A stretch of 64,000 nt of DNA. It comes from Vairimorpha necatrix. Its lineage: Eukaryota. Of the stretch, positions 2,155 through 64,000 are shown piece after piece. Within the stretch, counting starts at the first letter, position 1. Every line of letters begins with the position of its first letter. The stretch lies in contig CP142727.1 in the NCBI GenBank assembly GCA_036630325.1, positions 1,054,001 through 1,118,000 of the forward strand, written 5' to 3'. A program made the translations under genes and the position numbers. The notes beneath the pieces are model-generated. The model made no database searches. It was given only the letters and a program-made list of their open reading frames with translations, and was not told where the DNA came from.

Positions 2155-2222
2155 TACAGTATCTCAAACGGAATTCTCGTATACTATTTACAGTATCTCA
2201 AACGGAATTCTCGTATACTATT
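2155..2222. repeat. Perfect 34-bp tandem duplication
   Basis: TACAGTATCTCAAACGGAATTCTCGTATACTATT at 2155-2188 and 2189-2222. Confidence 0.95.
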
Positions 2223-8836: not shown

Positions 8837-9544
8837 AATAAAACTAATATATAAAGCTTACGTTCTAAAGGTTAGAATAATCTATACTTGTTTTTTAATA
8901 CAATTATAAAGACAATTTCAATTTTGAATTTTAATCTTACAAGTAAATACCACAGTTTTTTTACATTGAGAAAATAAAAAGCGTGTTTTTATTTTACTCT
9001 ATAAATCTCTTTTAATTTAACATGTCGCCAGCAGCAGCAAGTTACGATTGTCGTCTTTAAAGCATCCAAATTTTTTTCCCAGTGAATATGATTATTAGGT
9101 ACGTTTATGTAACTCTAAAAAACCAACCCAAAGTCTTTACTTCCATCTGGATCTCGCACACACAAACTTCATCAAATCTACTAGTCCTTTTTGTCTCTGT
9201 TTACGACTAGTGTGCTTTATGATTCATGTCAAGTCGTTTTATTACCAATTTTTTATTAATGCTAATTGAAACTTCGTCCGCCTATAACATGTGATACTCA
9301 CCATAAATGCCTTTCAGACTGTGATTATCTCTCATATACTATTTTGAATTAGTATTTCTTCATTTGCAGTGCCTTTCTCACGAATTGAATCTCGTGTGGC
9401 TGTTAATACACAAATTAATATATGACTTTTAAATAAATGTTTATATATTTCATCATTCTAGAATCATACACAAATTTATATAATCGTATACACATATTAT
9501 ATATTTCTATATATAAATCATATTCTTCTTTCTTCCCCCTTATT

Positions 9545-30400: not shown

Positions 30401-30442
30401 TTTCTTAAGGATGGGAAATCCAATATATGTCAAATTAAGTAG
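27404..30442 (+). CDS. SMC2: Condensin subunit SMC2
   Basis: NAITGLNGSGKSNI, IMQGHITKVLNMK, hinge TLDG..YDPKGTLTGG, WKDSLTELSGGQRSL, FDEIDSALDLSYTQSIG. Confidence 0.93.
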   Translation: MFIKDIILDGFKIYENKTIIRNLSKSYNAITGLNGSGKSNIIDGIIFTLGLESGKLLRTNTLKELINVNRKECKVTLVLSNTDKSKSPEGYKDYNEIIISRSIDNLGKTKFYLNNHSCSYSTINKLCSSMNINSEKGEFFFIIMQGHITKVLNMKSKEIGTLIEETAGTRSYTKEKEKAILALEKKERKLIEVRDTLQRRISPFYSRLREEREAFVEQRNLDQIKEQVTLEKKEIKQKILTDEISKNVINLRNIVEQYIKDKNELTNLESKLMELQDIECEESLINIKELLEDEKLKLEELRKTDPTNKLEKYKIELDKLVVPTKKTNLDELKERESFLLKNIKNEAVLGGKDFSIIEELENLKIKKTELEFNYQNMKDLKIEEINNKISNIEKYKVDYESLANDKKRLNYLKMKLIYPIRNDIYGTVDENITLTNDKYKEAVFTIMGSKSKHVIVSDEKIGSELLNTSDRRISVIPLNKIKSKFVDKNFIRKVKESKGKHMIDLITFDDKLRKAMEHVFNGYFVFEDSEMAKKMCYDLKIMCITLDGNVYDPKGTLTGGKSSYKIEITSKKEIQELQCKIEKAEQNYEYFTKCQEEYELLKIKKSKCLQKEKLVEELKSIEIKIKTITEFESCTADFRSELTEVRNKIIESIKEENIHKDLVNRKDEYIKNIKDLEIKKKENEESQEDCINKILKIQDKLGELEIKTSNKRLSERQIKGLEPKQKYLIRSTSKLRNRITKVYAELVESLKGQEEKDSDFISSINTTWLETYTEGENQKIFESLNIDDKVFNFKEQELDESEHKILLDRLSEIDLILEKCSSKNTVRMDPQNFDLLEKNEMIIESLKEKIQQLEEDKSNIMGSIENFNLLGIKENEKAFKHLNEKVGKFLRYFLKDSDVKIEKSGASEYELKVKVGNWKDSLTELSGGQRSLVALCLIFSILTYRPAPFYIFDEIDSALDLSYTQSIGEIIKHEFRKSQFIIISLKNGMYESADNVYKVFLKDGKSNICQIK

Positions 30443-36255: not shown

Positions 36256-37101
36256 TTATTTAATATGTTCGTATATCTGAATTATTTCTTCATGAATTTT
36301 TCTAGCTTCGTAAGAACTTGATATTAATGAAAATAAAATCATTTTTAGTGCTTTAATATATGCACTAACTGCCCTTTTCATCGTTTTATTTTCGTATCTA
36401 TATAACCCAAATCTATTTCTAAGTATTTCAAAGGTGTCAATCATTGGTATATAGTCAAATGCAGAATATATATTTATATCAAATCTATGTAGTTTTATAC
36501 TTTGCTCACATAAATATTTGAATCCTGTTATATCATTTTTCATATCATAAATGGTCAAAAAAAGTTCGATAAGTTTCATAAAATCAATGAGAATATTATG
36601 TATATCGATTGGAGTATTGTATTTCTTCATTAATTTTTTTATTTCCATCAATTGTTTTTTAGTCTTTATACACAAATTATCAAAATTTAATGTCTTTAGT
36701 TTTTCATAAATATTTTTATCTTCTCCAAATTCTATATCTTTTCTAATCTTTTCGCGGTTTACTTGTTCCTGGGTCGATTTACTTTCCATCCTCATTTTAA
36801 ATTGATTAATTTTATTTTCGCAATTAATTAAAAGACTTTTCATAATATATAAATGATTATAAAAAAATTGTATATTGGTTTCTACTGTTATAATTTCTTG
36901 TGTATCATCTGATTCCATACCTGTCAATAAATTTTTATTTTCATTCATATTTTTCTGAAGTTCATCATATGGTCTAAATTTATCATCTTGGCAATTAATT
37001 ATGGATATGTAGCTATCCGCATCATTCTCACCTAAAATATCTTTTTTGTATTCACTTAAAGTCAATTGACCACAATAAATAAAAGCTATAATATACATCA
37101 T
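36256..37101 (-). CDS. Hypothetical secreted protein, family B copy 1 (281 aa)
   Basis: Short hydrophobic N-terminus; FRPYDELQKN, NTPI and IYSAFDYIPMIDTFE shared with the 40880 and 44357 genes. Confidence 0.85.
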   Translation of the reverse strand: MMYIIAFIYCGQLTLSEYKKDILGENDADSYISIINCQDDKFRPYDELQKNMNENKNLLTGMESDDTQEIITVETNIQFFYNHLYIMKSLLINCENKINQFKMRMESKSTQEQVNREKIRKDIEFGEDKNIYEKLKTLNFDNLCIKTKKQLMEIKKLMKKYNTPIDIHNILIDFMKLIELFLTIYDMKNDITGFKYLCEQSIKLHRFDINIYSAFDYIPMIDTFEILRNRFGLYRYENKTMKRAVSAYIKALKMILFSLISSSYEARKIHEEIIQIYEHIK

Positions 37102-40879: not shown

Positions 40880-41725
40880 TTACTTTTTGTATATCTGGAT
40901 TATTTTATTATAGACTTTTCTTCCTTCAGTTATTTTAAATATAATATTATATAAAATTTCTTGGAGTTCCTTTACTTTTAGCTCTGTCTTCTTTTTTATA
41001 ATTTCATTTTCGTATCTATATAATCCTAATCCAGTTTTCATTTTTTCAAAGGTGTCAATCATTGGTATATAATCAAATGCAGAATATATTTTTATATTAA
41101 ATCTATGTATCTCTACACTTTGAGTACATAAATATTCGCATCCCGTTAAATCTTTTTTCATTTCATAAATTTTTAAAAAATGTTTGATAAGCTTCATAAC
41201 CCCAATTAGTATATTATCGATTTCGATTGGCGTATTGTAGTCCTTCAGTGATTTTTTTATTATCTTTAATTGAAATTTAGCATTTAGGCATAAATCATCA
41301 AATTTTAAATCTTCTAGTTTTTTATAATAATTTTTAATGCGTGCTTCCTTTTCTATTCGTTTTTCAATTCTTATTTGTGATCTTTTTTTTAATACAATTT
41401 CTTTTCCCATTAATATTTTAAATTCATTAATTTTATTTTGACATTTAGTTAGATAGAATTTGATTATAATGATTGGGTCATATAAAATTTGTCTACTACT
41501 TTCTAAGGTATTTTTTTCTAATGAAAAATCTGATTTCATATATTTACAATCAACCTGATTTTTTTCTAAATTTTTTTGAAGCTCATCATATGGTCGAAAG
41601 TATTCTGCATCATTTTGAGGTATTATAGATACATAATCATATGGTTTGTTCTCTAGTATGTATTCTTCTATGTAATCGCTTCTATTACATCGAGCAAAAT
41701 TTATAAAATTATAAAGCAGAATCAT
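40880..41725 (-). CDS. Hypothetical secreted protein, family B copy 2 (281 aa)
   Basis: Same motifs as 36256-37101; CCC before ATG. Confidence 0.85.
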   Translation of the reverse strand: MILLYNFINFARCNRSDYIEEYILENKPYDYVSIIPQNDAEYFRPYDELQKNLEKNQVDCKYMKSDFSLEKNTLESSRQILYDPIIIIKFYLTKCQNKINEFKILMGKEIVLKKRSQIRIEKRIEKEARIKNYYKKLEDLKFDDLCLNAKFQLKIIKKSLKDYNTPIEIDNILIGVMKLIKHFLKIYEMKKDLTGCEYLCTQSVEIHRFNIKIYSAFDYIPMIDTFEKMKTGLGLYRYENEIIKKKTELKVKELQEILYNIIFKITEGRKVYNKIIQIYKK

Positions 41726-44356: not shown

Positions 44357-45199
44357 TTAGTTGTATATCCGATTTAATTTTTCATAAATCTTTACCGCCT
44401 TATTTGTACTTGATAATAAGTTAAATATAATCTTTTTTATTGCTCTCATAATTTTATCTATTTTCATTGGTTTATAAATATTTTCGTATTTATATAAATC
44501 CATTTGTTCTTTCAAATTCTCCAAAGTTTCTATCAAAGGTATGTAATTGAATAATGAATATATTTCTATATTATACAAATTAATTTTTTTTCTTTGTGAA
44601 TATGAATATTTGCGACCCATTGTGTTTATTTCCATATCATAAATAGTAAGAAAAAGTTGAGTGATCTTTATGAACTCAATTATGATAATATTAATTTCGA
44701 TTGGAGTATTTAATTTCTTTATTAGTTTTGTTATCTCATTCAGTTGATAGTTAGTTTTGATACATAGATAATCGATTTTTAATTCTTCAAGTTCATGATA
44801 AATAATTTTTGCGGGCTCCATAACTTCTAATTTTTTTGTAATTAACATACGTGTTATCATTTTTGCGACTGATTTGCTTTTCATCCTTTTGATATATTTC
44901 TTTATTATATTTTTACATTTAATAATATGAAATTCCATTTTGAAAATTGATTTCTGCAATATGTGCCTGTTCCATTTGCAGGTCGAAAATTCTTCCGATA
45001 AGTCTGTTTTCATAAAGGTAGAAGAAGTTTTTTCTGTTCTTATGTTTTTTTGCAATTCATCATACGGCCTAAATACAAAAATTTCTTGAGAGGGTATTAT
45101 GGATATGTAATAATTTGTTTCATTCTCATTAATGTAATCTTTGATGTATTCACTTAAAGTTAACTCAGTACAATGAATATAATTCAAAATAAATATCAT
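44357..45199 (-). CDS. Hypothetical secreted protein, family B copy 3
   Basis: FRPYDELQKN, NTPIEI, IYSLFNYIPLIETLE. Start set at the ATG after CCC. Confidence 0.85.
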   Translation of the reverse strand: MIFILNYIHCTELTLSEYIKDYINENETNYYISIIPSQEIFVFRPYDELQKNIRTEKTSSTFMKTDLSEEFSTCKWNRHILQKSIFKMEFHIIKCKNIIKKYIKRMKSKSVAKMITRMLITKKLEVMEPAKIIYHELEELKIDYLCIKTNYQLNEITKLIKKLNTPIEINIIIIEFIKITQLFLTIYDMEINTMGRKYSYSQRKKINLYNIEIYSLFNYIPLIETLENLKEQMDLYKYENIYKPMKIDKIMRAIKKIIFNLLSSTNKAVKIYEKLNRIYN

Positions 45200-45785
45200 T
45201 TTATGGGTGAAAAGACACATGCCTATTTATATGAATTTTAAAAGTGGTTTTGTTATTAAATTATATGGAGGGTATTCATAGTGTAAAAAAGATTATTCAT
45301 GTATGGTCAATTACTTGACATGAAAAAAACATCAATGCAATGTATAAATGGTATACAACATAAGACTAATAAACTATTACATCTAAGACAAGATGCTTAT
45401 AAATGTTATTCAAGCTTTGTTTGCAAGTCAAGGGAAAAATATAGAGAAACTAAAATTAATCTGGGACTTATATTATTTTTTTGAGAATTAAAACACATGA
45501 GAGTACCCAATATATAGGTAAGCGTATTTAATCGCGTGGGAATTATTTTCTTAAATTTTCGATTTTAGCCAAAATGTTTGTACGAATTTTCTGGGAGTAT
45601 TTGAATGGAAAAACAGGTAAAAGATTATAGAGTAAACCGATGGATACAAAATAAATGAATTAAAATTTACTCTTTTTATGAATAAACAAAGAATATAACT
45701 TAGACAATCATCAAAATTATCAACTACAGAAATTACCATCAACTGTATGTTTTAGAGCCATATTGCTTTCGTATTATATATTTTA

Positions 45786-48700
45786 TGTATTTTTTTTTAA
45801 AAGAAGGTAGAAATTATACAAATATATAACATCCCTCTCTAAGACGGTTAGTCTCCCTTTATCCTCAACCCAAGCAGACCTTTCAGATCATAGTGTCTTT
45901 TCTTTATGTTTCTTTCATTTACGAGCTTTACAATGTATGAACCTTTACCACATCTCTCTATAATTTGACTATTTTCCAAAAACCCGCCTTTTGAATATTT
46001 CGTACCTTTAAAGTCTCCTTCTTGGCTACTTCAATGTACTCACCTACTTTAAAAACTTCTCGCTTTCCCTTATTTGCCATTTATACATATTTTCCTTGCG
46101 AGTTGTTTTCAATCATTACGTTCTCTTTTTCATTTTCTGTTACTTCTTTTGGTGTACATTTTATTGCGGCATGATAACTCATATTATATTTTTCAATACT
46201 ACTCATAACTTTTTCTTAATGGTACCTTCTTTCGTCTTAAAAATGCCTTTTTGCATCGTTATTTTGAAATTTTGCAAGCAACATTACTTTTGTTTGACGA
46301 AAAACTTACTTTTTTATGTTTAATTTCTAGTCTGTTGAAAAAAGCTTATACCCCCTCATTGAAAAAATCTCGTTCGTTATCAGTTATAATCTCTTCAGGC
46401 TTTTCCCCTTGCTCATATAATCTACTAATAAATTCTATAACATTATTTCCAGCTTTTTTCCCCATTACCGTTCTTCATACTCTTCGGTAAAATAATCTAT
46501 AGCTATTAATACGTGTTTACCTATGTCTCTAAAATCAATAAGATCCAAAGCAACCTTTTTAAGATAGAGTGTGTCTACAAATTCATATCCTCTGACTTAC
46601 TCTTTTATATATTTGCACTGTTCACACCTTCGTATTGCTTCATTTATGTCTTTCTTTATTCAGGGCCAATAAAAATTTTCTCGCATCACGTAATATACAC
46701 TAGTCATGCATCTATATCCAATCCGCTCGTGGTACTCTTGCATCCACCTCTCCCTTATATCTTCTGGAAGGATCTCTGCCTTTCGCCCCGAATCGAATGT
46801 CCTGTATCTCTTTTCTCCTATCATCTCAACGTGAGGGTTCCATTTACCCTTTATCGGCTTAATGGATCTTTCATTTTATCGTCTTCTATATGTATTCTAC
46901 TTAACGCGTCGGCCACTACCAGTTTTTCTGGATTCTTATATCCTATGGGAAAATCAAATTCCTGAATCTTATCGATCCATCTATTTATTCTATTATTGTA
47001 AAATATAGCTTATTACTAATTTCTACTACTGCTTTATGGTCTGTCTCAATGTCAAAGTTCCTGCCACGCAATTCTTATTTAAATCGTTAAATTTCCCAAA
47101 ATGTCGCGTACATTTACCTTTTCTGATATATTTTATCTAGTCTCCGTAGTGTTATGTTTTTTGAGCTTCATTGTATTGCTACCATTCTCCTTTCTCGTTC
47201 TTCTGAAGCAACACTGCTTCAATCCCTACTTTGCTCGCGTCCGTTCTGTTAATAGATACTTTACAATAATGTGGTAATCTAAATTTCCTCATCGTTCTCA
47301 ATACTTATTTTAGCTCTAAAAACTCCATTTCATTTCAATTGTCCATTTGCATTTTCTATCTTTACCTCTCAAGCTATCTGTCAGATGAATAGTTATTCCT
47401 GCATAATTCTTATTAAAATTCCCAAACCACCATGTTATTCCTAATTCTTTGCGTTTCACTTACACTTGTCGCTATGGGAATTCCAGTGCTTCGTTCCTCT
47501 TTATCTTTTTTGCTTCAAAATCTGTACCATTCAATGTAACGCTTAGAGCTTAACTAACTGAAACTAAATTGTATCTTCTCAATATTTAACCTCATTTATG
47601 TCTCTTTAACCTATCCAATACCTCTATTACCAACATGTCATGTCTTCTTTGGTTTTAGCGTATATGACTTTGTCGTTCATATATACTCCAACGCCATCTC
47701 CTTCCAAATCATCAAGGAATTTGAACATTTTTCGTTGTATTCTGCCGGGAATTTATATATCCTATCACCATGCTGTTCCATTCATATAACTTTCTTAAAA
47801 TTCAAAGGCCGTTTTGTGTTTGTCTGCTTCTTCAATTCCACGTGATAAAATCCCATTTTAAATCTATTACTATGAATCATTTGATTCGTGTGGCTTTATC
47901 AATGTCCCCGACATTTGACAACTCATACGGATCTTTCTCAACCACGCCATTTAAACACATTAGATTACATATAATCTCGCTTCTCCGTTAGGTTTACCTA
48001 TAGCCCCAATTGTGTTCCTCCAGTCAGGTGCCGACCTTCTTGTAATCTTTTTATCTTATAAACTTTTGATATATTTTCAGTATCCTTCATCAATTCCAAT
48101 GAAATTCTCTGCACTCCTTTTACTGCTCTTTTTCCTTAAGGGGCTTAATTTTCCATTTTTATATCTTGTAATATCTAATCTCTTCCTGTTGCGAAGAAAA
48201 CTTCCTTAAATTTTGCTTTTATGCCTTTAATGCTAAGACCCTTTCTTTTCTATCTTTCCTCTTTTCTTTTCGTTCTACTTCTTGCTTGCGCTTTACCACT
48301 TTTTCTATATTCTTGCGTACTGAGCTCTGTGCTTGTAGATCCACCCTCTTTTTGAACGCTTGTACGAATTAAAACGGTTATTTTTATTATTTTCCTCTTT
48401 CATCTTCCTTACGGAGCAATCTTATGCCATGTGCCCGAATCTACCGCAGTAAAAGCGACATTCACTCCTCTGCTTACATACTCTTTACTTACCCTTAAGC
48501 TTGCTTTTTTATTCGCTAATTCCTCTTTGAATGTTCCTCTAACCGACTCAGCAATCATTTCAATTATTCTACATTCATCTTCTTTTTCTATAACTTTTTC
48601 TTCCTTTTAAGATTCTTTTTCCATTTCTTCAACAATTAAAGTCCGATTGTCTTCTTTCCTAATCCTTTCAACCATAAAATTTTTTATTTCTTCTGAACCC

Positions 48701-48889
48701 ATTTCAAAAATTTTTGCTTTTAATATAGGCATGTCAACACCATCTAGCTCTAATTTATACACCAGCCCTTAACTTCTTGTAACATTTTTTCTGACCTCTT
48801 GACCACAGCCCTCACATGTCGACTCTCGATTTGGAATCGCCCCCACTATTTATCATAATGAGGAGGCGAAATTATACAAATATATAACT
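45786..48889 (-). mobile_element. Decayed ~3.1-kb Ty3/gypsy retrotransposon with ~45-bp LTR remnants
   Basis: Shared LTR core GAAATTATACAAATATATAAC at 45810-45830 and 48868-48888. PBS TGGGGGCGATTCC starts at 48845 on -. PPT AGAGAGGGA lies next to 45831. Broken CCHC, RT (EWNSMV, VYM.D), RNase H (ETDHK, RWIDKIQEFDF) and integrase remnants. Confidence 0.88.
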
Positions 48890-49871
48890 TCTATTAAAGA
48901 TCTCATATTTACTTCAAGAAGCAATTGATTAAATGTCGCTCAAATGAGCTAGTTCTTTTGAGCCTTGTTGTTTTATAGCTATATGTTAGACAATAGCATT
49001 ACATGTAACCGTGTAAAAGGATTGTTGTTTCAGCTCAAGCAGAATAGCGTACATTTACAATTAATCGTATTTAATTAATTTTTTCCATCAATATTCAGAA
49101 AAAGTAATTGGTCGAGAAAGATATAAATAATTTAAATGCATTCTGCGTTGCATAGTCTTAATTAGTGTTCAGTTTATTATTCTAAACAGAATAAAAATCA
49201 TGCAGTCATTATTTATACACAATTATATTTTAAGAAAATAAATGATATACAAGGCAAGAATCAACTGAAAATTTACTTATTGTATGAATGAAACTAAGAA
49301 TTTTGCCTTAAGAGAACATTTAGATTTAACTTTTATAAGTTTACACAACAAATTTTATATTTTCATAACATTTCTGATTGTTCATGTCATCAAGTTTATA
49401 TTTAATTCTTTTTCAAATCCCGAAATAATACTTGGTATATATTAAAATTTTTTTTTGTTAAGGTTTATCTACTTTTAGAATATACAACTCAAAATTAAAT
49501 TGTCCGGGCACCTATACTATATTTGATTTCTCTTCTATCAATGTTTTTTTTGTATTTTATCAAGGCGTCTAGACTATTTGCCCCACAATATGCTCTTTGC
49601 TTTTCCTAAAATTATTATGAGAAATAGGATCTCGATTTTCGTCAAAGGTATAGTCCTTCCCAAAATTTAATATGGAATTTAGTCATTATCCAACGTCTTT
49701 GCTACGAAACCATACAACGTTATGACTTATACATAGAGGCTTTTTTTTGTCAATGTTTAATGTTCTAAAATTTTTAGGTCTCGGCTATCCAGTAAAAAAC
49801 TTAAATATAAATTTCTAAGTATTCAAGTTTAATAAGTATTTTTAGCTTAAAAATAAAAAAATAAAATACCT

Positions 49872-50171
49872 TTATTTTTCTTTTTTTAATTCATTTAATT
49901 TTTTTTCACATAACTCTTTAATCATGCAAAAAAAGTGCTCACTACAGATTCCATATTCCTTTTCGGCTGTATAAATTTCATAATTTTTCCGACTTGGCTT
50001 AATTTCACTTGATATAAGTTGTAAATTTGTAAAGTTTTCTCGAAATGTCGAAAAACTACATGGTTTAATTGATAATTTCGCGACGTTTTCACATATTGAT
50101 AAATTCGTAACATTCGATCTATTTACAGAATTTGATTGTATGTAAAATAAACTTAGGAGCATTGCAATCAT
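49872..50171 (-). pseudogene. 5' fragment of a probable secreted-protein gene
   Basis: CCC motif, signal-peptide-like start, ORF ends after 99 aa in an A-rich run. Confidence 0.35.
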
Positions 50172-52123
50172 ATTGGGATACGTCTGGTTCTATTATTTAT
50201 AATTCAAATATTAATTAAAGTTCTGCATCAACACTACACATTCTTTATGAATTAATGATATGATTAAAATGCATTTGACTATCTAGGTTACAAAAAAAAC
50301 ATGAAACTACACTCGTTGATCTGTAGTTCTTAACTCTTTATTTAATATGTATAACGAAAAACATTTTTTACTTTCTATTTTTACAAAAAAAAATTTAATT
50401 CACTTTCAAGACTATAATATTTCTCTTTACGAATTCTGGGTAAAATAGGTTTACTATATTTAGAAGATAAATGAGAAAAAGGTTTAATTTATTTTTTCCA
50501 TATAATTAGAATATAATACAATTAAAGCAATATTCTAAATATAAAGACAATCACATGGAGAAATTCAATATATGAATATTAGTTAGTTCCACTTTTTTAT
50601 TTTAATTTATCAAAAAATAAATTTATACGACGTTTTATTGACTCATTGATTTTATTAATGTGGACGGCGGATAGTCCAGATATCATGATTGGTAATTCTA
50701 ATCGGTAAAACGTCTCAGTCTGAAACAACGTTTCAGAAATAAATATAAATACCTTTTTGGAATAACAATCATGGGTAAAAATAAATACAATTCAACTAAA
50801 TCTCATATTTCGTCTAACGTCAACATATTAAATTAACAAATAAATCATTTAAATGACATTTAGAAACAAACAGAGTTGCACGAAAAAACAGAAAAAATAA
50901 TTTAAAGTATACACCAATAACAACCCCTTTCTTCATTGGTAGATTATAAAACCAATTACATTTGAATTTAAAAGTAACACGACAAAAAAATTTATTATAT
51001 GGAATAAATGTTATACTACCAATATTCTCGTAGTAATACTTGCCTCGATTGGAATTGCACACTATAGTAGCTAGAGTATTCAATTCCTATTACAATCACC
51101 CCCTAGAAAAAGCAACCCTTGTTGTTTTTTAAACATGATAATCTCAAACGGTTTTGCAACTTCTTCCTTTTGCCGTAAGTTGCAATGAGAATTATTATAC
51201 TAATTTTCAATTTTGCCACATCTCGCACTATATGAGTCATATAATCAGTACTGCTGACTAAATTTAAAATATGATTCGTTTTCTAATATAACAATATCTA
51301 TTTCATTCTTTTAATCAAGTATGGTATTATTCTCTTAACAAAGATGTACTGCGATTTTAATTCTTTCTCAATATATGATTCTCAAAAGGAATTAAAAAAT
51401 GACTTTTTAGCTAACGGAATGGCACTGAAGTAAATGTAGATGTTGAACTTAAATTGCACATAAAAGAATCTATATGACAAAATTTCTAACTGAGATAGCT
51501 TTCGAGGTAGAAAATACACTAAGATATACTAGAACAATCAAATGATTGTTTTCCGTATATGTAACTACTTTCGCTAAATCATAAAAAAACATCATAGCTT
51601 AAGCGTATAACTAAAAAATGAAAATGTCTAATTTGATCAATAAACAAAATTAAAATACATAAAGATTAAATAAAAATATAATAGCCAAAATAAATATAAT
51701 ATGTTATATGAAAAATGACATCACTCTAAAAATAAGCCTAATCTTTTATATGAATTATCTTCTACCACTTTAATGTTAATAATGTGTTGTCTGGTTTTGG
51801 GTTCTTCATAAATATATTTCAGGCTCCTTAAAATCATTTTATAATCATCATTATCAAATACTTGTGTGACTTTACATGTTTCCTGATCGTCGATTTTGAT
51901 AGTCATTATATAAGATAACACAGTTTTTAATTTATGTTGGTTTAGTTCTTTTACATTAAAATTAAAACATAAAAGAGAATTATAAATTTTTTTGGTTTGA
52001 TTCGCTAAAGATTTCAATAATTCATAAATTACTTTTTCTTTTCCGTGATATGTAATCTTGAGACCAGTCATATTTAGTGAGTGCCAATATATCTCGAATC
52101 TCAAATCTTTTTTAGTTATTTCA

Positions 52124-52161
52124 TGTTAACCATTTATTTATTAAGGGTTCTAAACCCTACA
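52124..52161 (-). repeat. 3' LTR (38 bp)
   Basis: Minus strand TGTAGGGTTTAGAACCCTTAATAAATAAATGGTTAACA; contains the ORF stop codon. Confidence 0.95.
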
Positions 52162-55100
52162 TCCCCCCTCCAGACGGGTAGTCTCTCCATCTTCTAAACA
52201 ACTCTTCCTTATCTCTTTCAAATCATAATGCCTCTTTTTAACAATTTTACCATCCAGTAGTCTCACAATATATGAATCATTTTCACTTATAGCTACGATC
52301 CTTCCGCGACCCGTGAATCTTCCCTTGTCTGTTTTCGCACGTGTACCTAAATTTTCTCTTCTAGCGATTCTTACCTCTTGGCCTACTGTAAATGTCTCTC
52401 TGTGTCTTCTCTTGAACCGACCAGCATATTTTCCATTTTCATCATTTTCAATTATAACTTCAGCAGTTTGATCTCTCCACGCTTCCATCGGCGTACATTT
52501 TATTGCTGTATGTAGTGTATTATTATATCCTTTGATTGCTCTTTCTATCTTTTCAGAAATATTCCCATCATTTTGCTTTATCAATGTCTCTCTTATAGTT
52601 CTGATGCATCTCTCGATTCTACCATTACTCCTATGAGCTTCTAAGCCCACTTTCCTATGTTTAATATCATTAATACTACACCATTCTTTAAATCTATTAC
52701 TTACAAACTCTTTTCCGTTATCTGTCACATATTCCTCTGGAAATCCATCTTCCCTTATCCACTTTTGTAATACCTCTATAACTTCACTACTCTCTTTACA
52801 TCTCAAATTCGAACCCCACAACCTTCTAGTAAAGTAATCAATACCCAGTAACACATACCTATTCTCTCCACCTATGTCCATTAAATCCAACGCCACTTTC
52901 TCCAATTTCTTTCTAGTTACTACGAAATCACATCCTCCTGTGTTTTTCCTATTGTTAATCCCACATATTTCACAATTCTTAATTACCTTATTAATATGAT
53001 CTTTTATACCAGGCCAATACCATCTTTGTTTAATGTTATAATAAGTGCCTTTGACACCTCTATGGTTTAACTCCTCATGTACTCTTGTTATTTCATGTTC
53101 TCTACTATCTAGGCTCAATATCTCTTTCACCTCACCTGTGGAAAATTCCCAATACTGTTTACCGTCCTTTTCTTTAATATGTTTCTGCTTTTTTCCCAAA
53201 ATTTGTTTTTCGATCACTTCTTTTCTCTTGTTGTCCTTTTCTTTTTGTTCATCCGACACTTCTACCTGATCATACTGCCTACTTAACGCATCTGCATCTG
53301 TCATCAACTCCCCTTTCACATACTCTATTGTAAAGTCAAACTCTTGTATCTGTTCTACCCATCTGTTTATTCTGTTATTATTGAAGTATGGCTTATTTCT
53401 GATCTCTGCTAATGCTTTATGATCCGTCATCAAATGAAATTTCCTTCCTCTCAAATCACTTTCAAACTTCTTTATTCCAAAAAACACCGCCAACATCTCC
53501 TTCTCACTTATCGTATATCTTCGCTCGGTAGGAGTCAACATTTTCGATGCCCATTGTATCGGAATCCACTCACCCTCTTTATTTTCTTGTAATAGAATTG
53601 CTCCGATCCCCGTATCACACGCATCAGTTCTTACTCTAAATAGCTTTTTCCCGTCCGGAATCTTCAATTTTTTCATATCTCTCAAGCCTTGCTTCATATC
53701 CTCAAAAGCTCTTTCCATATCCTCCGTCCAATTCCACTTAACATCTTTCTTTAAAGCCTCAGTAAGCCTTACTGTTCTATACGCATAGTTGGGAATAAAG
53801 TCTCTAAACCAACCAGTTAGTCCTAAAAATCTTCTTAACTCTCTAACATTCTCAGGTTTTCTATATTCCAATGTCTCCTGCTTTTTAATCTCATTCGGTC
53901 CCATGACCTCCCCATTAATTGTTACTCCCAGCAACATCACCTCATCTTTTTTGTATTGTATCTTTGTTTGGTTTATTCTCAACCCACACTCTTTAAACTT
54001 TTTAATTACCCTCTCTAGTAACTCGTCATGCACTCTTACGTCTTTACCATGAATAACTATATCATCCATATATACTTCCACGCCTTTACCTCTGAATTCA
54101 TCTAAAACTCTGTTCATTACTCTCTGCATTATATGAGGCGAATTCTTAAACCCCATAACCATACTATTCCATTCGTATACTCGACCATTCACTTCAAATG
54201 CTGTTTTGTGCTTATGGTGCTCCTCAATCTCAATATGATAAAACCCTTCTTTTAAGTCGATAACCGTAAATACTTTTGACCCCTGTGTGGCTCTCATAAT
54301 ATCCTTAATTAACGGTAGTGAGTACGGGTCCTTGTCAACCAAATCGTTTAACGCCATCAAATTGCTTACCAATCTTACGTCCCCATTTGGTTTTTCAAGT
54401 GCTCTTATTGGACTCCTCCACTCACTTTTGGAACGTCTTATAACCCCTCTATTTTCCAACTTATTCAAGTACTCCTCAAATTTCACCCTAAGGTAGTATG
54501 GCACATTCTGCCCTCTTTTCACAACCTTTTCACCTTGCTTAGTATTTATTGGACACTTCTCTCCTGTGAGATATTTTATCTTTTCTTCTGATTCTTTAAA
54601 AACTTCCGGATACTTTTCAATTAAATTTTCTAACTTATTTACTGTTTTACATCTTTTCCCTTCATTGTTGATAATTGGTTCTTTCTGTAAAACTTGTTCC
54701 TTTTTAATTTTATATTTTTCCCTACCAGCTACACTTTCATGACATTCTCTAGCGTAATGCCTTTCTTTCTTACATATAAAACATTTTGTAGTTTCTCTGA
54801 TTTCTCTTCTTTTCCTATACATCCTAAGATTTTCTTTTCTTTCTTCCCTAAACTCTTTCAACACTTTATCCATAATCTCTTTAATCATTTCTTGTCTTTC
54901 TTCTGACTCTCTCTCAAATTCTGCTCCTTTTTGTAAGCCTTTATAAATTTCCTCCCAACTGCTCCTTCCGTCACAAAAATTTTCAAAAATATAATCCTGC
55001 AAGTTCGCAGATGCCAAATCCATAACATCTTTCCACTCAACTTTCTCAACTTTCAATATTAACTTTAGTCTCTTATCTATCCTAATTGCCTCTTTCTCTA

Positions 55101-55170
55101 ATGTTCTAGCCTCTTGACTACGGGACTCTCTTGTTTCCCTGTTCATCCTTGTGTTCGCCATGTTAACCAT
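52150..55170 (-). CDS. Gag(CCHC)-RT-RNaseH-integrase polyprotein (1006 aa), no recognisable protease
   Basis: CFICKKERHYAREC; DLKEGFYH, MGFKNSP, YMDD; TDACDTG, EKEML, TDH; HEELNH...CEIC, LDLMD, TDNGKEF, NGRIER. Confidence 0.95.
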   Translation of the reverse strand: MVNMANTRMNRETRESRSQEARTLEKEAIRIDKRLKLILKVEKVEWKDVMDLASANLQDYIFENFCDGRSSWEEIYKGLQKGAEFERESEERQEMIKEIMDKVLKEFREERKENLRMYRKRREIRETTKCFICKKERHYARECHESVAGREKYKIKKEQVLQKEPIINNEGKRCKTVNKLENLIEKYPEVFKESEEKIKYLTGEKCPINTKQGEKVVKRGQNVPYYLRVKFEEYLNKLENRGVIRRSKSEWRSPIRALEKPNGDVRLVSNLMALNDLVDKDPYSLPLIKDIMRATQGSKVFTVIDLKEGFYHIEIEEHHKHKTAFEVNGRVYEWNSMVMGFKNSPHIMQRVMNRVLDEFRGKGVEVYMDDIVIHGKDVRVHDELLERVIKKFKECGLRINQTKIQYKKDEVMLLGVTINGEVMGPNEIKKQETLEYRKPENVRELRRFLGLTGWFRDFIPNYAYRTVRLTEALKKDVKWNWTEDMERAFEDMKQGLRDMKKLKIPDGKKLFRVRTDACDTGIGAILLQENKEGEWIPIQWASKMLTPTERRYTISEKEMLAVFFGIKKFESDLRGRKFHLMTDHKALAEIRNKPYFNNNRINRWVEQIQEFDFTIEYVKGELMTDADALSRQYDQVEVSDEQKEKDNKRKEVIEKQILGKKQKHIKEKDGKQYWEFSTGEVKEILSLDSREHEITRVHEELNHRGVKGTYYNIKQRWYWPGIKDHINKVIKNCEICGINNRKNTGGCDFVVTRKKLEKVALDLMDIGGENRYVLLGIDYFTRRLWGSNLRCKESSEVIEVLQKWIREDGFPEEYVTDNGKEFVSNRFKEWCSINDIKHRKVGLEAHRSNGRIERCIRTIRETLIKQNDGNISEKIERAIKGYNNTLHTAIKCTPMEAWRDQTAEVIIENDENGKYAGRFKRRHRETFTVGQEVRIARRENLGTRAKTDKGRFTGRGRIVAISENDSYIVRLLDGKIVKKRHYDLKEIRKSCLEDGETTRLEGGCRV

Positions 55171-55198
55171 TTATTTATTAAGGGTTCTAAACCCTACA
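55161..55198 (-). repeat. 5' LTR (38 bp)
   Basis: Identical to 52124-52161; contains CCC, AATAAA and the ORF's first ATG. Confidence 0.95.
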
Positions 55199-57689
55199 TT
55201 TCATATCTATTATTTTTATTAACACCGGGCCAGTTCGGTTGACTTTTAATAGGAAATATCATATTACTCAAAATACTATCATAAAGTAATTTTGCCATTA
55301 GTTCTGCAATAAGGAAATCATAAGTTTTATATGTTATTGTAGTACTATCTTGAAAAAGTACTCTACGACAATGTTTACGATCTTCATACAAAATATCGGC
55401 CTGATCACTTCCTTCTATTGTCCAATTAGTTAAAATTTCAGTTACGGTATTGTTTATAACTCGTTTTAGATTTAAGAAAACTAAAGCTGTATTTAGAAAC
55501 ATCATAACCCTCCATATTAATTTTTAAATGTACAAATAAATCTATTACACTAGAATGATAAATTTTTTTTTAAGATTCACAACAAATTAGCTTATGATGT
55601 TTTGTTTAAACACTTTGTTTGTTAATGTTGTATATCTGACTTACTTAATATTCTTGTTGACTCAAATAAACAAAACTTAAATATTATAATTATGTAATTC
55701 GCAATTCTTCGTATGTATAGAGAGTTAAGAAGTCCTTCATATTATGAAAAAATAGATTAAAAACATTAAAATGTCAATTGAGTTAGAAAAGTGTTGAATA
55801 TGAATATTTTAGATTAATTTTTATAAGTTCAGAAACCCCAAATGTTGAAATGATGGCTCATGCTTATTCAGACCTAATTCAATACCAACTATGTATAATT
55901 TCTAATATGTATATAAATATTATCAAGTTTTTTTAATCAGTTTGCGCAATACACTACATAAATAAATTTTTTTGTAAGAGGTATATATTGTAATAAATTT
56001 GTAATGATATGTAGAATATTAAGTCCAAATTATAAATTTCCAATATTTTTTGAATGTATGACTTTTTCGTTAACTTTTAAAATAATAATTAGAGAAATTC
56101 TAGAAAATTATATCATTCAAAAAGCTTGTCGATTTTGTGATTATATAATTTCATCAAGACTTTTAGACATAAATAGTAAGTTCAAGTCAATTTTAATCCG
56201 GAAACCTAGTCAATACCGTACATTTGTATTTTATAAAATAAAAGTTTACTTTTCTTCTATATAGCACGACTAGATGACTACAAGATTTTAGATTTTAATA
56301 AGGCAAGTACATAAAGGAAAGCAAGTCTACAAGTTAATATAGCTTACGCTAAGATTAGAATAAAACCACGATAATTTTTCATAGAAAACATAAAAGATAA
56401 AATCTATGACCAACATGCACACACATTAAAAACTCTGATCTTTACACAATTAGAGAAGATCAAGAGAAATATTCATTTCTTAAGGACATATATAAAAGTG
56501 TTAAACAATTTATAAATATTAAGAGACATGGATTTTTCTTTATTGCAAGACTTCATTCATTTCCAGCATTCTTTACGAAGTTAAAAAACCACTGCTTTTA
56601 TACCTTGTTTTCAAGTTGGCGTGGTAAATAAAAACTTCCTATTAAGAATCTGTTGTTAATGCCTGTCTTTTCACGATGAAAAAAAATAGATTATAAACAT
56701 TTTGATATAGGGAAATACGGAATCTAAAAATAAAATAAAACTTTAGTACATATAATTGATGAAATAATAAGATTTAAACAATTTAAACCATATATATATG
56801 AGTACTTAAATTTGGATCGGAGCTATTGAAAAAGATACATTTATTTTTATCTTCTTAGAATAGCCGAACATAAATAGGCTTAAACATTTGGGTTTGCCGA
56901 TTTTATTGTTTAGAAAACAGTATTCTATGTAGAAAAAAGTGGTGACAATTTGGTTATCAAATAAAAGTTTTAAAATAAAAATTGTCTAAAACACCCTTTT
57001 ACTAGTTCATATTGTTAATACATTTACCTTTACAAAGCAAAAAGTTTGACACAAACTTCTAAATTTTTTTTTCAATGTAAATATCTAGTGCGCAACATAA
57101 TAAATTAACAGACAATAAATAAGACGACAATATTTTTAAATTTTTAAATCTAAGGATATACCTTGTAATACATATTCGACTAAAATTTATAGATTACTAT
57201 AACAATTTGTCTTCTTTGTAAATTATTCTATGATAGGAACATTATTTATATCTCAATTCATTTTCTTGGAGACACCAAAACATTATCTTAATTCTATTGA
57301 AATTTACTTATATTTAAACAAATAATTTAAATAAAAATGAAGACCGTCATAATTTCTATTTTCTTACTTTTTTATAAAGTCTGTTTATTTCGGTAATGTA
57401 CCGGTAAAAAAAAATTATTAACACGTTGTTGCAGTGGGTCGTTTTTGAAATTTCTGGTTCGAGTCAGCGTCACTCGCTTTCAAAATTGTTCAGAAATAAT
57501 GAAATAACACAAATTTATTTTTCGAAATAAATATAGACATCAAACACAACTAACATAAATAAATACTTTAAATTAATATTTAATTTTTTTTGCTTAATAA
57601 AGTCTTAAAATCCAACAATTATTTTATTCAGATTATAAAAATGACAATATAGATACATAATAGTACATAAAGTATATGATAATTAAGAC

Positions 57690-58270
57690 ACAAAATAAGA
57701 TCTACCAAGAAAGTAGTTGTGCTGGGCCGACCATTCCTTTTACGGTACCTATATTGGATGATATGCAGTCAAATAGATAAATTTTTCTTCAAATTGGCTT
57801 TTAGAAAACTATAAACTTATTAATTTAGCTTCAAGTAGAAAGAATATATTGGAAGATTACAAAATTGGTTCATTATGTAATTCCGCAAAAAGATTTAAAG
57901 TATCTTTTGGGCCAAAAGGTTATTTTATATAAAACACCCTTTAGTGTTCAAAACATTAAAAAAATGTAAATGCGTTATTTATATAATTCTATCCTCTAAA
58001 TTCAATATTGATATCTGATTTGCTCTGCGGATTAACTATAGAAAAAAGGACAAGGTATTTATAAGACATGAGGCCATTAAAGTAAAATGATGTAATAAAA
58101 ATAAATATTGGTTGTCTGTTGATGAAAAAACGACAACAGTATCATAAAAACAATTCTTCTTATAACTCTACATAAATGTCCATAGTGTTAAAACTATTAG
58201 AATATTGGTTCTATCCCTTATTATGGTTTTTTTATCATATGTAACCCTTAAAACCGATTGTATTTGAATT
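57690..58270 (-). pseudogene. Very old RT relic (gypsy-like)
   Basis: Fragment PFGPK (cf. PFGLK) preceded by T.KG.. and followed by GMVG...-like remnants; heavily decayed. Confidence 0.3.
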
Positions 58271-58791
58271 GTGAAATCAGCTTCTAGTACAATTACTTGT
58301 TTTGAGAAGTATGATAAATATCAAATAACTTCTACATATCTTATACCTTTAGCATTAATTATTAAACTTCTATTCTGGCTTATTCCGCCTTTTCTTTACA
58401 TAGGACTATTACTAACTAATTTTTTTCATTTTGATATTCACTGTCGGCAATATACGTCTTTTTAATTTTGACTTTAAATTTTTTTATTGGCATATATTTT
58501 GATTATTTTCATAATTTTACGTTTAATTTAGTAAATTACAAAAAAATAATATATTTAGGGATTACTAAATAATTTCGTGCTAAATCTTTACTTATAGCAG
58601 AAACGTAAAATGAAGTATATTTGTTCTTTTGCCTCTAATAAATTTAATTGCTTTATCAATATGTCAATAATCTTACTATGAATAATAGATTTAAGAAACA
58701 GATGTTTAATCAAATTATTAATTAAAGAAAATAACAAGTTACTTAGTTATATTATATTTAATTTACCATGCGATTAAAAAATAAGTAAGGA

Positions 58792-59532
58792 CTAATTTAA
58801 ACAATACACATTGTTTTGTCTGCTTAATTGAGAATTTTGAACATCTAAGATATCAATTTGTAAATTATCAAAGGACATATTAGAAACACAATTATGTATT
58901 ATGGCGATATTATTGTCGGTAACATATCTGATTTCTTTCTTTATGTTTTGAAAATTTCTTCTTGAAAAAACTCTTGTTACTTTATAACTAATAAAACTCT
59001 CCAATTTAATATCAATTTTATTCGACAAAACTAGTTTTATATGAAAAAGATTGAGTTTTTGTTTTCTAAAATTAAGACACACTATATCATTATATAATGC
59101 ACGAGTTTCGTCAGCAAGCGATAATAATATTTCGTAAATTACTGCTTTTTTTCCTATATTAAAAAAAAAGAAAAGAGGATCTTTCAATGACCTATATAAA
59201 TTTCAAACTTCAGGTCTCGTTTTAAGATTTCATATTTCTTTTTATTTCGTTCTTTAGGCCAGTCAGATTTCATTTTTATTGGAAAGTTCAAATTTTCTAA
59301 AAGTAAATCAAAAAAAAACTTTAGCTATTGCTTCTGCTTGCGAATTATTATAATTATCAAATATTTGATTATGGTTTGTAAAAAATAATTGTTCATGGCA
59401 ATTATCATTCTCTATTTTTATTTTAGTAATTTTTTCATTTTTAACTTCCGCGTCATAATTTTTTCCCTTGGTTGTGGGATGAGTTTTGACTTTCTGGAAA
59501 TCCAGAACTAATAAAAAATGTTTCAAAATCAT
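58792..59532 (-). pseudogene. Family A secreted-protein gene with frameshifts
   Basis: CCCC-ATG start and signal-like N-terminus. Across frameshifts it reads NFPIK..SDWPKERNKKKYEILKRDLKFEIY then GKKAVIYEILLSLADETRALY. Confidence 0.75.
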
Positions 59533-61566
59533 TCTTGGGGTATTTTTTAATATTTTATTTAAAGAAAATCATTAAATTACCATTAAACCAAAATTAATAA
59601 ATTTGTAGGCTTTTCAAAACATTAATAGTATTTGAATTAAATATAAAAAATTTATTTTAAAACAGTACATCGCTTGTAAATTTTTATTTTAAGAAGTCTA
59701 TATCTATTTTAAAATACTTTATGTAAGCAATTAGAGAAAATTTAAAACTGTTACATATTCGTGATTATAGTTTAGTATGTTAATTAATATTTACCAACTT
59801 AAAATAATTTATTAAAGAGACTAAATGTAATCAGTTAAAAAATAAGATTCTAAAACGTTTTGATGAAATAATTTAAAAAAATAGTACACAAATATTTAAA
59901 AAAATTAAGTTTTAATAAAATTTTTAAATGAACACGCAATATTGCATGTTTTTTTCAAAACAAAACAATAGAAATACTAAAGTAGTTTTTTATTTTCAAC
60001 TTATTGTATTTAGGATCAAAACGACAATTAATATACACATTAATTAAATTAAAATATAATGTACATATCATTAGGTACCTCAATTAAATAATATTTTTAT
60101 GGTAATTTTAAAGCCTATAATAACGAAATAATTATTTATATTACAATAATTTGATGATTATTTTTAATTTAATATACTTCTAAAAAATCATTATAAAATA
60201 TAATTTTCAGCTACAATTAATCAAATTTCGAATTATATAGATATTCAATATTTTTAAGTCATTACACAAGGCCGAATTGCAAAATACGTTTATATCATGG
60301 AAAATATCTTTACAAAAAAATAATTTTGCTTTATATAAAAGGATCAAAACAAAAACTTACTAATTATATGTATTATTATTACATTTCCTAAACTATTTTG
60401 ATTCCATAAGCTAATTTACTAAAATATAAGGATATTTAGACATTAAAACGAAGATATAACATTTCAACTTAATGTTATAAACATATACAGCAAAGATAAA
60501 AGATTGAATTCAGATATTTTTAGTCTTAGTAATGATCATTTGAAAATCTTGAATAAATAATGCCCAAGTGAATAACAGAAATGACATACTCATTTAGTAC
60601 CACAAAATATAGCATACTATGTACCTATACCTGGCCGAATCATGGCGTGTTCCCTTCGACCTCCAAGTAGACCCAGAGAATATTCGTATAATTTTCAAAA
60701 TCGGATACTAGTAAAAATCAAAAAGCCGATTTAGGTGATTTTTTCATAACTATTATTTCTAAGTAATGTAAAAAATGAAACTAAAAATTTTGAAAAAAAA
60801 GTTTATTCAAGTTCATATGGGGTAAAAATTATGCAGAATGTATTAAAATTACAACGTATGCTTAGGATGATAAGATTTTTTGAAATTTTTTTTTAATTTA
60901 CAAATTGTCCGATTTCTTCGGTATACTTTAAGATTTTTTTAGCATTATCAGTAAATGTAACGCCTTCAGTACTTTATGTTAAGGCTTCGTATGATATCAT
61001 ATGGGATACTCTGTTTAATGTTATCCCATCTCGGGTCATATTGCATGATCGCGATCTTCAAGTTAAGACAATCGAGTATATTTTACAAATATAACTTTAA
61101 ATTTAAGGATTTTTTTTTGTAAGTTTTTCATTAAATCACATTATTTCAGTCACTTCTTTTTTTTATTTTTTAACATAAATGGGTGCTTTATTTTTTCTTT
61201 TTGATTTTTAATAAAATTCAATTAAAAATTCAAATGATGACTATTGTTTTTATTTGGAGATAAGTATTGATAGTCTGTAACAAATAAATCATAAACGCCT
61301 GTAATAGGGTCTCTCGGCTGTAATAATTGAAAAAATATTAAGAAATGATATGTAAAAAGTTCTAGCTTTGACACTAATTACAAAATGACTCACTGGATAA
61401 AGTAGATAACAAGAAAATTTTATTATAGGTGTATAGTTTGGAATGCCTCATTATAAATAAACTCACGAAATATCACAATAGAGTGGGTATACATGGATAT
61501 TTAATTACTCCAATACAATTATAAAAATAGTTTATTATGAATTTCTAATTTCGAATTCGTATCAAA

Positions 61567-64000
61567 TGTTATATATCCTTATTATTTTTACCCCTTATGA
61601 TGGAAAATAAACACATGGGGGCGATACCAGAAAATGGGTCTACAAAGGAGGACCGTGGCCAAGAGGCTAGAATATTATTAAAAGAGGTTAAAAGGATTGT
61701 TTATGAGTTGTTTTTAGAGAAAATTGATGAGTGTGGATTTAAATTAGAAATTTTTAGGAGAGGTTCTATTTTATTGAGAAATTTTATTGTTGAGAGGATC
61801 TCGCAAGAGGGTAGTTGGAAGGAAATTGAGGAAAAATTAGAGTTGCTAGCTATTCAGGAGGAAAAGGAACAAGTGAGAAAAAAAGAATTTGAAGAGTTGT
61901 CCCTAGCGTTATGGGCTAAATTTGAGGAGAAGAATAAGTTGTCTCGTAAGGAAAATAAAAAGAATATGCGTTGCTACAGTTGTGGGAAGTTAGGCCATAT
62001 GTTAGATTTTGTAGGGGAATGAGGCGAGATTCCGAAGACAGAAGAAATAAAAGTAGTTTTAATTATGTTGGTAAATGTAAAGTGCAATTAGACTTAGAGG
62101 GTAAATGTGATGACGATTCCAATTCGGACAAATGTGATTATTATAATGTTGATGGTGGGAAACGTAAGAAGAAAAATTTAGGGGATATACAAGATTATAG
62201 CAAAAGGGACAATAATAAGAGAGTTCTGTTGAGAAGGGATGTAAGAGGCATCGCGTATTTAGAGGAGATTATTTCACGGGTAGGAGGAAGAGAGGATGAA
62301 GATATTAGTTTTTGTAAGGTTGAAAAATGTATTATCAAGACTCAAGAAGGCAAAAAAGTTGTTAAAAAGGGGCAGGCTATAGCCCAGGCTTTGTTGAAGA
62401 AGACGGAAGATTATATTAATAGTTTGGAAAGAAGAAAGATAATTAGAAGGTCGACATCTGACTGGAGAAATTCCATTAGAGCGATTGAGAAACCGAATGG
62501 TGATATAAGATTAGTAAGTAATTTAATTGCTCTTAATGACATTGTAGAGAATGACCCTTATGAGTTAACTAGGAAAAGAGATGTTATTAGAAGTACACAG
62601 GGATCTGAATTTTTTACCGTGATAGATCTAAGGAGGGGTTTTATAGTATTGAGATTGAAGAGAAGGATAGGTTTAAGGCGGCTTTTGAGTTTAAAAAAAA
62701 TGTATCCGAGTGGAATTCGATGGTCATGGGGTTTAAAAACTCACCGCAGATATTACAAAGAATAATGAATGGGATTTTTGAAAAATTTATTGGTAAGGGA
62801 ATCGAAATTTATATGGACGATATTGTGATTCATAGTAAGACAAGAGAGGGTCACGACAAATTGTTGAAAGAGGCTGTGGATATATTAGAGGAGAATAGTA
62901 TGAAAATTAATTTAGCTAAGGTTCAATTATGTAAACGAGAGGTGATGTTGTTAGGAGTAACAGTTAATGGCAAGGAGATACTGCCATCTGAAATAAAGCA
63001 AAATGAAGCGTTAGAATTTCCCAAACCGGAGTGTGTATCAGATGTTAGGAAGTTTCTTGGGCTGGCTGGATGGTTTAGAAATCATATTGATAATTATGCA
63101 AAACGTACATTGGCGTTGACGGATTCTTTTAAAGGACGAGGAAGTAATTGGAAATGGACAGAAGAAATGGAAAAAGAATATATTAGTTTAAGGGAAGTGA
63201 TTAGGGATTTAAAAGGTTTAGCAATTGTTAATTATAATAAGGAATTTTTGTTACGCACGGATGCGAGTAATGTTGGATTGGTTGCTGTTTTAATGCAGGA
63301 AGATGATCAAGGTAATTGGGTACCAGTACAGTGGGCATCAGAAAAGTTTACGCCTACGGAAACGAGATATGGAATCAGTGAGAAGGAGATGTATGCAGTC
63401 TTTTGGGGAATTAAAAAGTTTGAATATGAACTACGCGGAAGAAGATTTAGGGTAGAAACTGATCATAAGGCATTGATCGAGATTAGAAATAAACCAGTAT
63501 TTAACAATAATAGAATTAACAGGTGGATTGAAAAGATTCAAGAGTTCGACTTTAGCATTGAATATAGAGAGCCTAGTACCATGGTTGTAGCAGATGCACT
63601 GAGTAGGGTACATGAAAATGAGAAAACGCTAATGAATAAGGAGAGAAGTATTAAACAGGCACAGGGTAAATGGGACAAGCATGTTAAAGTTGTTGATGGG
63701 AAGGAAATTTGGGTATTTGACTCTGGTAGAGAAGCGGAGATTCCAAAGAAAGAATTGCGTGAAGGTTTAATTGTCAATGCTCATGAAAATTTGGGACATA
63801 GAAGTTTAGGATCAGTGTACTATGCAATGAAGTTTGAATTTTATTGGCCGGGTATGAAGAAGGATATCGAGGATGTTTTAAAGAAGTGTGAAGTTTGCCA
63901 AATATATAATAGGAAAAAGAGTGGTGGTTGTGATTTTGTTAGTTCAAGATTTTATTTGGAAAAGGTTGCTTTGGATTTGATTGAGGTTAGAGATTTAGGG
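61567..64000 (+). mobile_element. Third minimal Ty3/gypsy copy (frameshifted, truncated by the window end)
   Basis: Putative 49-bp 5' LTR TGTTATATA...AATAAACACA (61567-61615) with CCCC-ATG inside, then PBS TGGGGGCGATACC. CYSCGKLGH, YMDD, TDAS, TDHK, HENLGH...CEVC. Frameshifts near 62000 and 62630-62700. The 3' LTR is outside the window. Confidence 0.9.

Follow-up and report, generated by a model that had tools for sequence, protein, structure and literature searches.

How small can a long terminal repeat (LTR) retrotransposon become and still spread? The question is raised by a 64,000-nucleotide stretch of the microsporidian Vairimorpha necatrix (positions 1054001-1118000 of one contig, in the following called the window), in which three elements of about 3.1 kb are bounded by LTRs, or remnants of LTRs, of 38 to 49 bp. 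Comparisons with the whole genome assembly (15.0 Mb on 12 contigs; GC content of the window 22-37%) indicate that each stands for its own subfamily of a single old Ty3/gypsy lineage of microsporidia, which has been reduced to about 3.1 kb and has recently spread in many copies. The interesting part is the minimal build without a protease, more than the difference in primers, since primer switching by itself is ordinary.

Three small Ty3/gypsy elements and their relatives

Copy 2 is the intact one of the three and shows the build of the elements best. Its single reading frame starts in one LTR and stops in the other:

52124-55198, minus strand: copy 2, family A element of 3,075 bp, TSD (target-site duplication) TGAAA; about 42 insertions in the genome
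55161-55198, minus strand: 5' LTR, 38 bp; CCC at position 15, AATAAA at 20 and 24, in-frame ATG at 29
55148-55160, minus strand: primer-binding site (PBS), 13 nt to tRNA-Arg(TCG), 12 nt to tRNA-Arg(ACG); in frame, M-A-N-T-R
52150-55170, minus strand: single frame of 1,006 amino acids (aa), start in the 5' LTR, stop in the 3' LTR
52162-52171, minus strand: polypurine tract
52124-52161, minus strand: 3' LTR, 38 bp, same sequence as the 5' LTR

The encoded protein comprises a helical Gag-like part of about 125 aa, a CCHC knuckle, reverse transcriptase (RT, residues 259-418), RNase H (481-611) and integrase (690-839). Copy 3 runs out of the window:

61567-64000, plus strand, and on to window-equivalent position 64747: copy 3, family B element, 3,181 bp in total
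61562-61566, plus strand: left TSD TCAAA, which recurs after the 3' LTR
61567-61615, plus strand: 5' LTR, 49 bp
61616-61628, plus strand: PBS, 13 nt to tRNA-Pro(AGG); in frame, M-G-A-I-P

Its frame is disrupted by three shifts and one stop, and it is 98.9% identical to L034, another member of family B, which numbers 27 insertions in the genome. Copy 1 is decayed:

45786-48889, minus strand: copy 1, 3,104 bp
48846-48889, minus strand: 5' LTR remnant, 44 bp
48833-48845, minus strand: PBS, 12 of 13 nt to tRNA-Pro(AGG), 10 of them contiguous
45786-45831, minus strand: 3' LTR remnant, 46 bp, with a decayed purine tract before it

An earlier note on this DNA had given the extent of copy 1 (about 3.1 kb, LTR remnants of about 45 bp) and of copy 2 (38-bp LTRs) as listed here, and both stand, the LTRs of copy 2 being identical. 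For copy 3 it had proposed that the 49-mer should recur about 3.1 kb further on, next to a TCAAA duplication. Beyond position 64000 both were found, the second LTR (64699-64747 in window-equivalent numbering) matching the first at 49 of 49 positions 3,132 bp downstream.

Membership of all three copies in Ty3/gypsy is indicated by direct terminal repeats of the form TG...CA (TG...TA in family F) with a TSD of 5 bp, a tRNA PBS and a purine tract, the order RT - RNase H - integrase, and an RT that is nested among gypsy-type polyproteins bearing a protease, in trees whose rows include no copia or BEL references. The RT-RNase H trees (43 rows in the larger, 23 in the smaller) were built from rows chosen by hand among hits of about 400-1,300 aa together with the families of the genome.

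For the family analysis, 120 loci were screened for paired elements. A strict pairing rule gave 66 loci with a paired element (68 pairs), and a looser look at the same 120 loci added family F and others. Six multi-copy families were distinguished, namely A with a 38-bp LTR and an Arg PBS, and B to F with LTRs of 48-49 bp and a Pro PBS. Among the 63 paired copies of families A-E (3.0-3.3 kb; A-C were picked as best hits, so the sample is biased to intact copies), the two LTRs were identical in 52, the 5-bp TSDs matched in 55, and 32 had a frame of at least 1,000 codons. It is hardly conceivable that such elements arose from ordinary ones by separate recent deletions or are artefacts of assembly. 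No support for this explanation was found, and it is ruled out by the dozens of dispersed copies with distinct TSDs, by a build that recurs across the six families and in other hosts, and by a like-built consensus of Anncaliia given in the supplement of PMC4202319.

Several observations on individual families were made along the way. The 49-bp LTR of family F ends in TA instead of CA in 11 paired copies (L128, L140-L142, L147, L149, L150, L156, L159, L162, L182) and the ATG at its junction with the PBS is kept. Decayed copies resembling family A (L134 and L168; 39-bp LTR, Arg PBS) lie near the ends of two contigs, and one family A copy (L004:1473-5519) has a third LTR 972 bp past the second, with the TSD matching the outer pair.

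The representatives of the families share 48-67% of their residues in pairwise protein comparisons, and differences between families are in excess at third codon positions (0.19/0.14/0.53 for pol of C versus D), pointing to purifying selection that has kept RT, RNase H and integrase. Family A groups with two proteins of Nosema granulosis (support 100/97), closer than to the other families of its own genome. One clade of A-F plus one protein named after V. necatrix was rejected (approximately unbiased test, p-AU 4e-5; the group was named after the first tree had been seen), while a group of B-F and the same protein was recovered in both trees (support 96/92 and 87/96). The simplest reading would be a single old split at which the primer changed once, between the Arg and the Pro branch, but the pattern could also have arisen by horizontal transfer from host to host. 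These data support the view of the earlier note that the copies belong to an old, diversified lineage and do not stem from a one-off deletion. DNA of relatives was sought by a metagenome scan, which returned one unrelated locus, and by a viral scan, which returned none.

Copy 1 is nearest to family C (79% DNA identity), its best other match in the genome has 77% identity, and it was the sole close copy found of its own subfamily. Aligned with family C, it shows many stops and 38 gaps that break the frame; its LTR remnants have the first 21 nt in common and its TSD is degenerate. Its differences from family C amount to 0.16/0.13/0.34 by codon position, while two decayed copies of family C, taken as controls, differ evenly from C (0.05/0.03/0.05 and 0.14/0.12/0.13). 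Because of this third-position excess, copy 1 is regarded as a separate, now dead subfamily, and its interpretation as a decayed member of family C was discarded.

Primers, start codon and short LTRs

The PBSs were compared with the 3' ends of the genomic tRNAs plus CCA (63 Rfam matches; 65 genes, 50 of them distinct, by ARAGORN; some isotypes are lacking in the set). For copy 2, tRNA-Arg(TCG) matched over 13 nt and tRNA-Arg(ACG) over 12, the next isotype over 7. For copy 3, tRNA-Pro(AGG) matched over 13 nt and the next tRNA over 8, and the PBS of copy 1 fits tRNA-Pro(AGG) with one mismatch in 13 nt. None of the 815 other TGG sites in the window reached 13 nt and one reached 12. Genome-wide, the exact 14-mer of ATG and Pro PBS occurs 94 times, its reversed control not at all. 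Complementary tRNAs thus exist for all three copies, which was one of the checks set by the earlier note, and the two PBS strings that it took for Pro-type both match tRNA-Pro(AGG). Its statement that the subfamilies use different primer tRNAs is right as to three subfamilies, but the tRNA matching gives just two primers, Arg and Pro, and three different primers are ruled out. Similarly, only copy 2 has an LTR of its own kind. Alignment of the remnants in copy 1 with the LTR of family B, to which copy 3 belongs, gives z 4.6-5.5 versus shuffles, and these LTRs are homologous, whereas the LTR of copy 2 gave no alignment with those of copies 1 and 3 above shuffles (z about 1 or less). Of the N-terminal motif [SG]QE.R....E, said to be common to all copies, copies 2 and 3 have the full form; copy 1 retains no more than an in-frame GQEVR, after which its frame breaks, and family D reads GLEAKKLLKE at this position.

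In the representatives of all six families the last base of the LTR, an A, forms an in-frame ATG with the first two bases of the PBS, TG (in copy 2 it is the last base of the 5' LTR that supplies the A), so that the PBS is coding sequence. A second in-frame ATG lies at LTR position 29-34, after the CCC, again in six of six. Each primer therefore corresponds to a protein start encoded by the PBS, namely M-A-N-T for tRNA-Arg, M-G-A-I-P for tRNA-Pro(AGG), M-V-E-N for Ala(AGC) and M-A-P-C/D for Lys, and by way of the junction ATG the use of primers becomes readable from protein databases. The N. granulosis proteins start with MANTR, two protease-bearing relatives with MVES and several others with MAS-; these differing starts suggest further primers in other hosts.

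The LTR also resembles a host promoter. For microsporidia, an AAATTT-like plus CCC signal, 5' untranslated regions of less than 7 nt and an AAUAAA about 20 nt before the cleavage site have been described (PMC2803860), and in the window 11 of 17 genes, counted by eye, have a CCC no more than 15 nt from their first ATG. A conserved hairpin of LTR and PBS was considered and rejected; it was seen in the two Pro families folded, where it did not rise above shuffles (z -0.9 and -1.3), and is absent in family A (z 0.1).

Very short LTRs are not unique to the protease-less clade, as relatives in the same genome that bear a protease have LTRs of about 50-76 bp:

L173:1245-4735, plus strand: element of 3,491 bp with 70-bp LTR, Ala(AGC) PBS, protease-like motif and broken frame
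L167: element with LTR of about 50-60 bp, Lys-like PBS and protease motif
L127: internally deleted element with 76-bp LTR and Ala PBS

In the 43-row tree L173 branches outside the protease-less clade, and it seems that short LTRs came first and the protease was lost later. The LTRs of other protease-bearing families measure 168-270 bp. Two further loci, L124 (minus strand, 1962-2703) and L166 (minus strand, about 3484-4345), resemble terminal-repeat retrotransposons in miniature (TRIMs), with 0.74-0.86 kb, LTRs of about 55 bp and an Ala(AGC) PBS.

Of the 82 LTR matches of family A, most form 38 pairs; a further pair is interrupted by a nested insertion, one match is an internal duplicate, and three are single ends, each of which is joined to a PBS or purine tract; the 54 matches of family B make up 27 pairs. 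Hence no solo LTR was found among the 69 insertions of families A and B. By contrast, 3 of 16 young insertions of the families with 168- and 270-bp LTRs are solo LTRs (Fisher p 0.006) and, counting older clear cases, 6 of 21 (p 9e-5; four unclear loci excluded), in a comparison of two short-LTR with two long-LTR families that are not independent draws. A tie between LTR length and solo-LTR formation is suggestive for this genome, not a general law; such a link is cited in PMC7251063, second-hand to Du et al. 2012.

Protease loss and the possible mode of transposition

Aspartic-protease Pfam families gave no match in copy 2, nor in any of 18 sequences of the clade and its near sisters, two of which lack the N-terminus; the positive control recovered 12 of 12 relatives labelled as protease-bearing by motif match at E<=0.05. 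The protease-less clade is supported by 100/99 in the 23-row tree, where it is nested among protease-bearing relatives, and by 92/92 in the 43-row tree. From this nesting it follows that the protease was lost. Two near-sister polyproteins, P0015 and P0022, have a longer Gag-like region, no protease match and no knuckle, and branch below the small-Gag clade, a placement which hints that loss of the protease preceded the shrinking of Gag, or happened twice.

It is very improbable that a protease too diverged to be recognised still lies between knuckle and RT. The linker of families B-F does exceed that of A by 30-80 aa, and some true relatives give weak Pfam matches (E 0.047-0.048). However, in family A a mere 35 aa or so separate the knuckle from the region aligning with RT-side sequence, so that length alone would already make such a protease unlikely; conservation is lowest in the linker, which is also variable in length, and D[ST]G is absent within 260 aa past the knuckle in 16 of 16 clade sequences.

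The CCHC knuckle is invariant in 13 of 13 rows. For the part of about 125 aa before it, a four-helix bundle and a long helix were predicted (pLDDT 80-87). Its Atlas neighbours are CCHC/Gag clusters. Capsid C-lobes turn up repeatedly among the structural hits, but the likeness of the model to them is weak (Arc, Z 5.7-6.1, root-mean-square deviation 2.5-2.6 over 64 residues) and tied with unrelated helical hits. Foldseek gave no match at E<=0.001, no structural comparison reached Z>=8, and profile comparison with sister Gags stayed below 1% probability. The modelled resemblance to a capsid C-lobe is a lead only.

Taken together, the elements probably move by ordinary tRNA-primed reverse transcription and integration with their own RT and integrase, the polyprotein working uncut or being cut by the host. 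The LTR would combine a core promoter of the host type (T-rich run and CCC, with an ATG a few bases further along) with a poly(A) signal. If the microsporidian promoter rule holds, RNA would start near LTR position 30 and end at or past the LTR end, which would leave 10-20 nt for first-strand transfer. A host tRNA, Pro-AGG in B-F and copy 1 and Arg-TCG in A, would prime at the PBS that doubles as coding sequence, and one primer switch would separate the two branches. LTRs this short may rarely recombine, so that copies would seldom be lost as solo LTRs. A stricter version of this mechanism is put forward tentatively, as its joint truth is somewhat doubtful: a self-sufficient lineage without protease, whose single uncut protein consists of a single-lobe capsid remnant, coiled coil, knuckle, RT, RNase H and integrase, which makes do with a redundancy of 10-20 nt, takes its start codon from the integrase CA end and the complement of the tRNA CCA, and persists by virtue of LTRs too short for excision by recombination.

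Some points weigh against self-sufficient transposition, besides the few families behind the solo-LTR comparison and the uncertain capsid. The promoter and poly(A) layout is not uniform, the CCC of family A lying 12 nt before the ATG and the LTR of family F having no AATAAA after the CCC and ending in TA. Transcript ends, protein processing and mobility are deduced from sequence, and of at least 150 protease-coding loci in the genome, 15 and a few chance finds were examined. These loci also leave room for a semi-autonomous life, in which the elements have their own RT and integrase and borrow a protease, perhaps a full capsid as well, from protease-bearing families. A multi-copy family without RT is present that might serve as an example (L185-L188, e.g. 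L186:369-3183). It has 270-bp LTRs and one 791-aa Gag-protease-integrase frame lacking RT and RNase H, and occurs as seven paired copies and five solo LTRs with TSD. Cooperative sets of retrotransposons are reported from wheat (PMC9744471), but the marks of partnership described there, the same PBS and conserved LTR ends, are not shared by the families sampled. The RT-less family has no tRNA PBS beside its long LTRs; the PBSs of the sampled protease-bearing families are Ser, Ala, Lys-like or fit no tRNA, none being Pro or Arg, and no helper with the same PBS and LTR ends occurred in the sample, which covered 15 of the at least 150 protease loci and the chance finds. Moreover, the clade persists across hosts with deep divergence. 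Borrowing from a helper is the main rival but is regarded as rather unlikely, and transposition by the elements' own enzymes as the better explanation.

Neighbourhood and comparison with known systems

Apart from the three copies, the window contains three paralogous open reading frames of 281-287 aa just upstream of copy 1 (36256-37101, 40880-41725 and 44357-45220, minus strand), with hydrophobic N-termini and no Pfam match over the cut-off. Stretches with related terminal inverted repeats, two of them with shared ends, occur at about 1022-1634 and 7759-8842 and at 3189-4004 and resemble miniature inverted-repeat transposable elements. Host genes comprise:

17618-19006, minus strand: RtcB
20154-21518, plus strand: subtilisin-like protease (by eye)
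24456-25880, minus strand: cysteine-rich secreted protein resembling a spore-wall protein (by eye)
27404-30442, plus strand: SMC
30550-32355, plus strand: MscS-like channel (by eye)

According to textbook knowledge, an LTR retrotransposon needs cleavage by a protease, a two-lobed capsid and LTRs of at least 100 bp. An old, still-spreading clade that lacks the protease and such LTRs, and probably a two-lobed capsid, makes three questions testable: how short a repeat can support strand transfer, whether RT and integrase function as parts of a Gag-Pol that stays uncut, and whether selection favours short LTRs for their escape from excision to solo LTRs. The elements show how small an LTR retrotransposon can get and yet still spread. 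With Ty3 and Tf1 they share the TG...CA ends, the 5-bp TSD, the tRNA PBS, the purine tract, the CCHC knuckle and the order of domains. What separates them from Ty3 and Tf1 is an LTR about a tenth as long, a Gag of about half the size, the lack of a protease and a PBS inside the frame. The Nbr elements of Nosema bombycis, the subject of a 2006 study by Xu et al., reportedly encode a single polyprotein with the order RT-RNase H-integrase as well. Small size and short LTRs are also characteristic of TRIMs. The clade has these traits and missing enzymes in common with TRIMs and semi-autonomous plant LTR elements (PMC9744471). Unlike TRIMs, it keeps intact RT, RNase H and integrase, has intact frames in 32 of 63 paired copies and has no matching helper among the families sampled.

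In the literature within reach, which excludes most subscription journals, no description of a microsporidian clade without protease or with micro-LTRs, or of the junction ATG, was found. Among the closest known systems are the Microsporidia-specific Ty3/gypsy groups 1-3, which are single polyproteins (PMC4202319; the point is repeated in PMC13174016) and share this property and the RT-RNase H-integrase order with the present clade. Frames that begin within the LTR are frequent in Table S1 of PMC4202319, and occur in other families of this genome as well. Most of the complete Anncaliia consensus sequences in that work differ from the clade in having LTRs of 100-270 bp and a length of 3.6-4.3 kb; the long-LTR families sampled in the V. 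necatrix genome possess a protease. The word protease does not occur in the main text of PMC4202319, and its passages on these elements do not discuss LTR size, primer or a missing protease. One entry nevertheless has the same dimensions, the Anncaliia algerae Consensus_retro_L of 3,127 bp with a 50-bp LTR and an open reading frame at 32-3049 (Parisot et al. 2014, PMC4202319, Table S1, File S1). In its first 600 nt, read by eye, TGG comes after the LTR end ACA; the protein starts with M-A-S-K and has a motif like GQE and, early on, a CCHC knuckle. It differs by a third type of PBS (TGGCGTC...), and very probably belongs to the same lineage.

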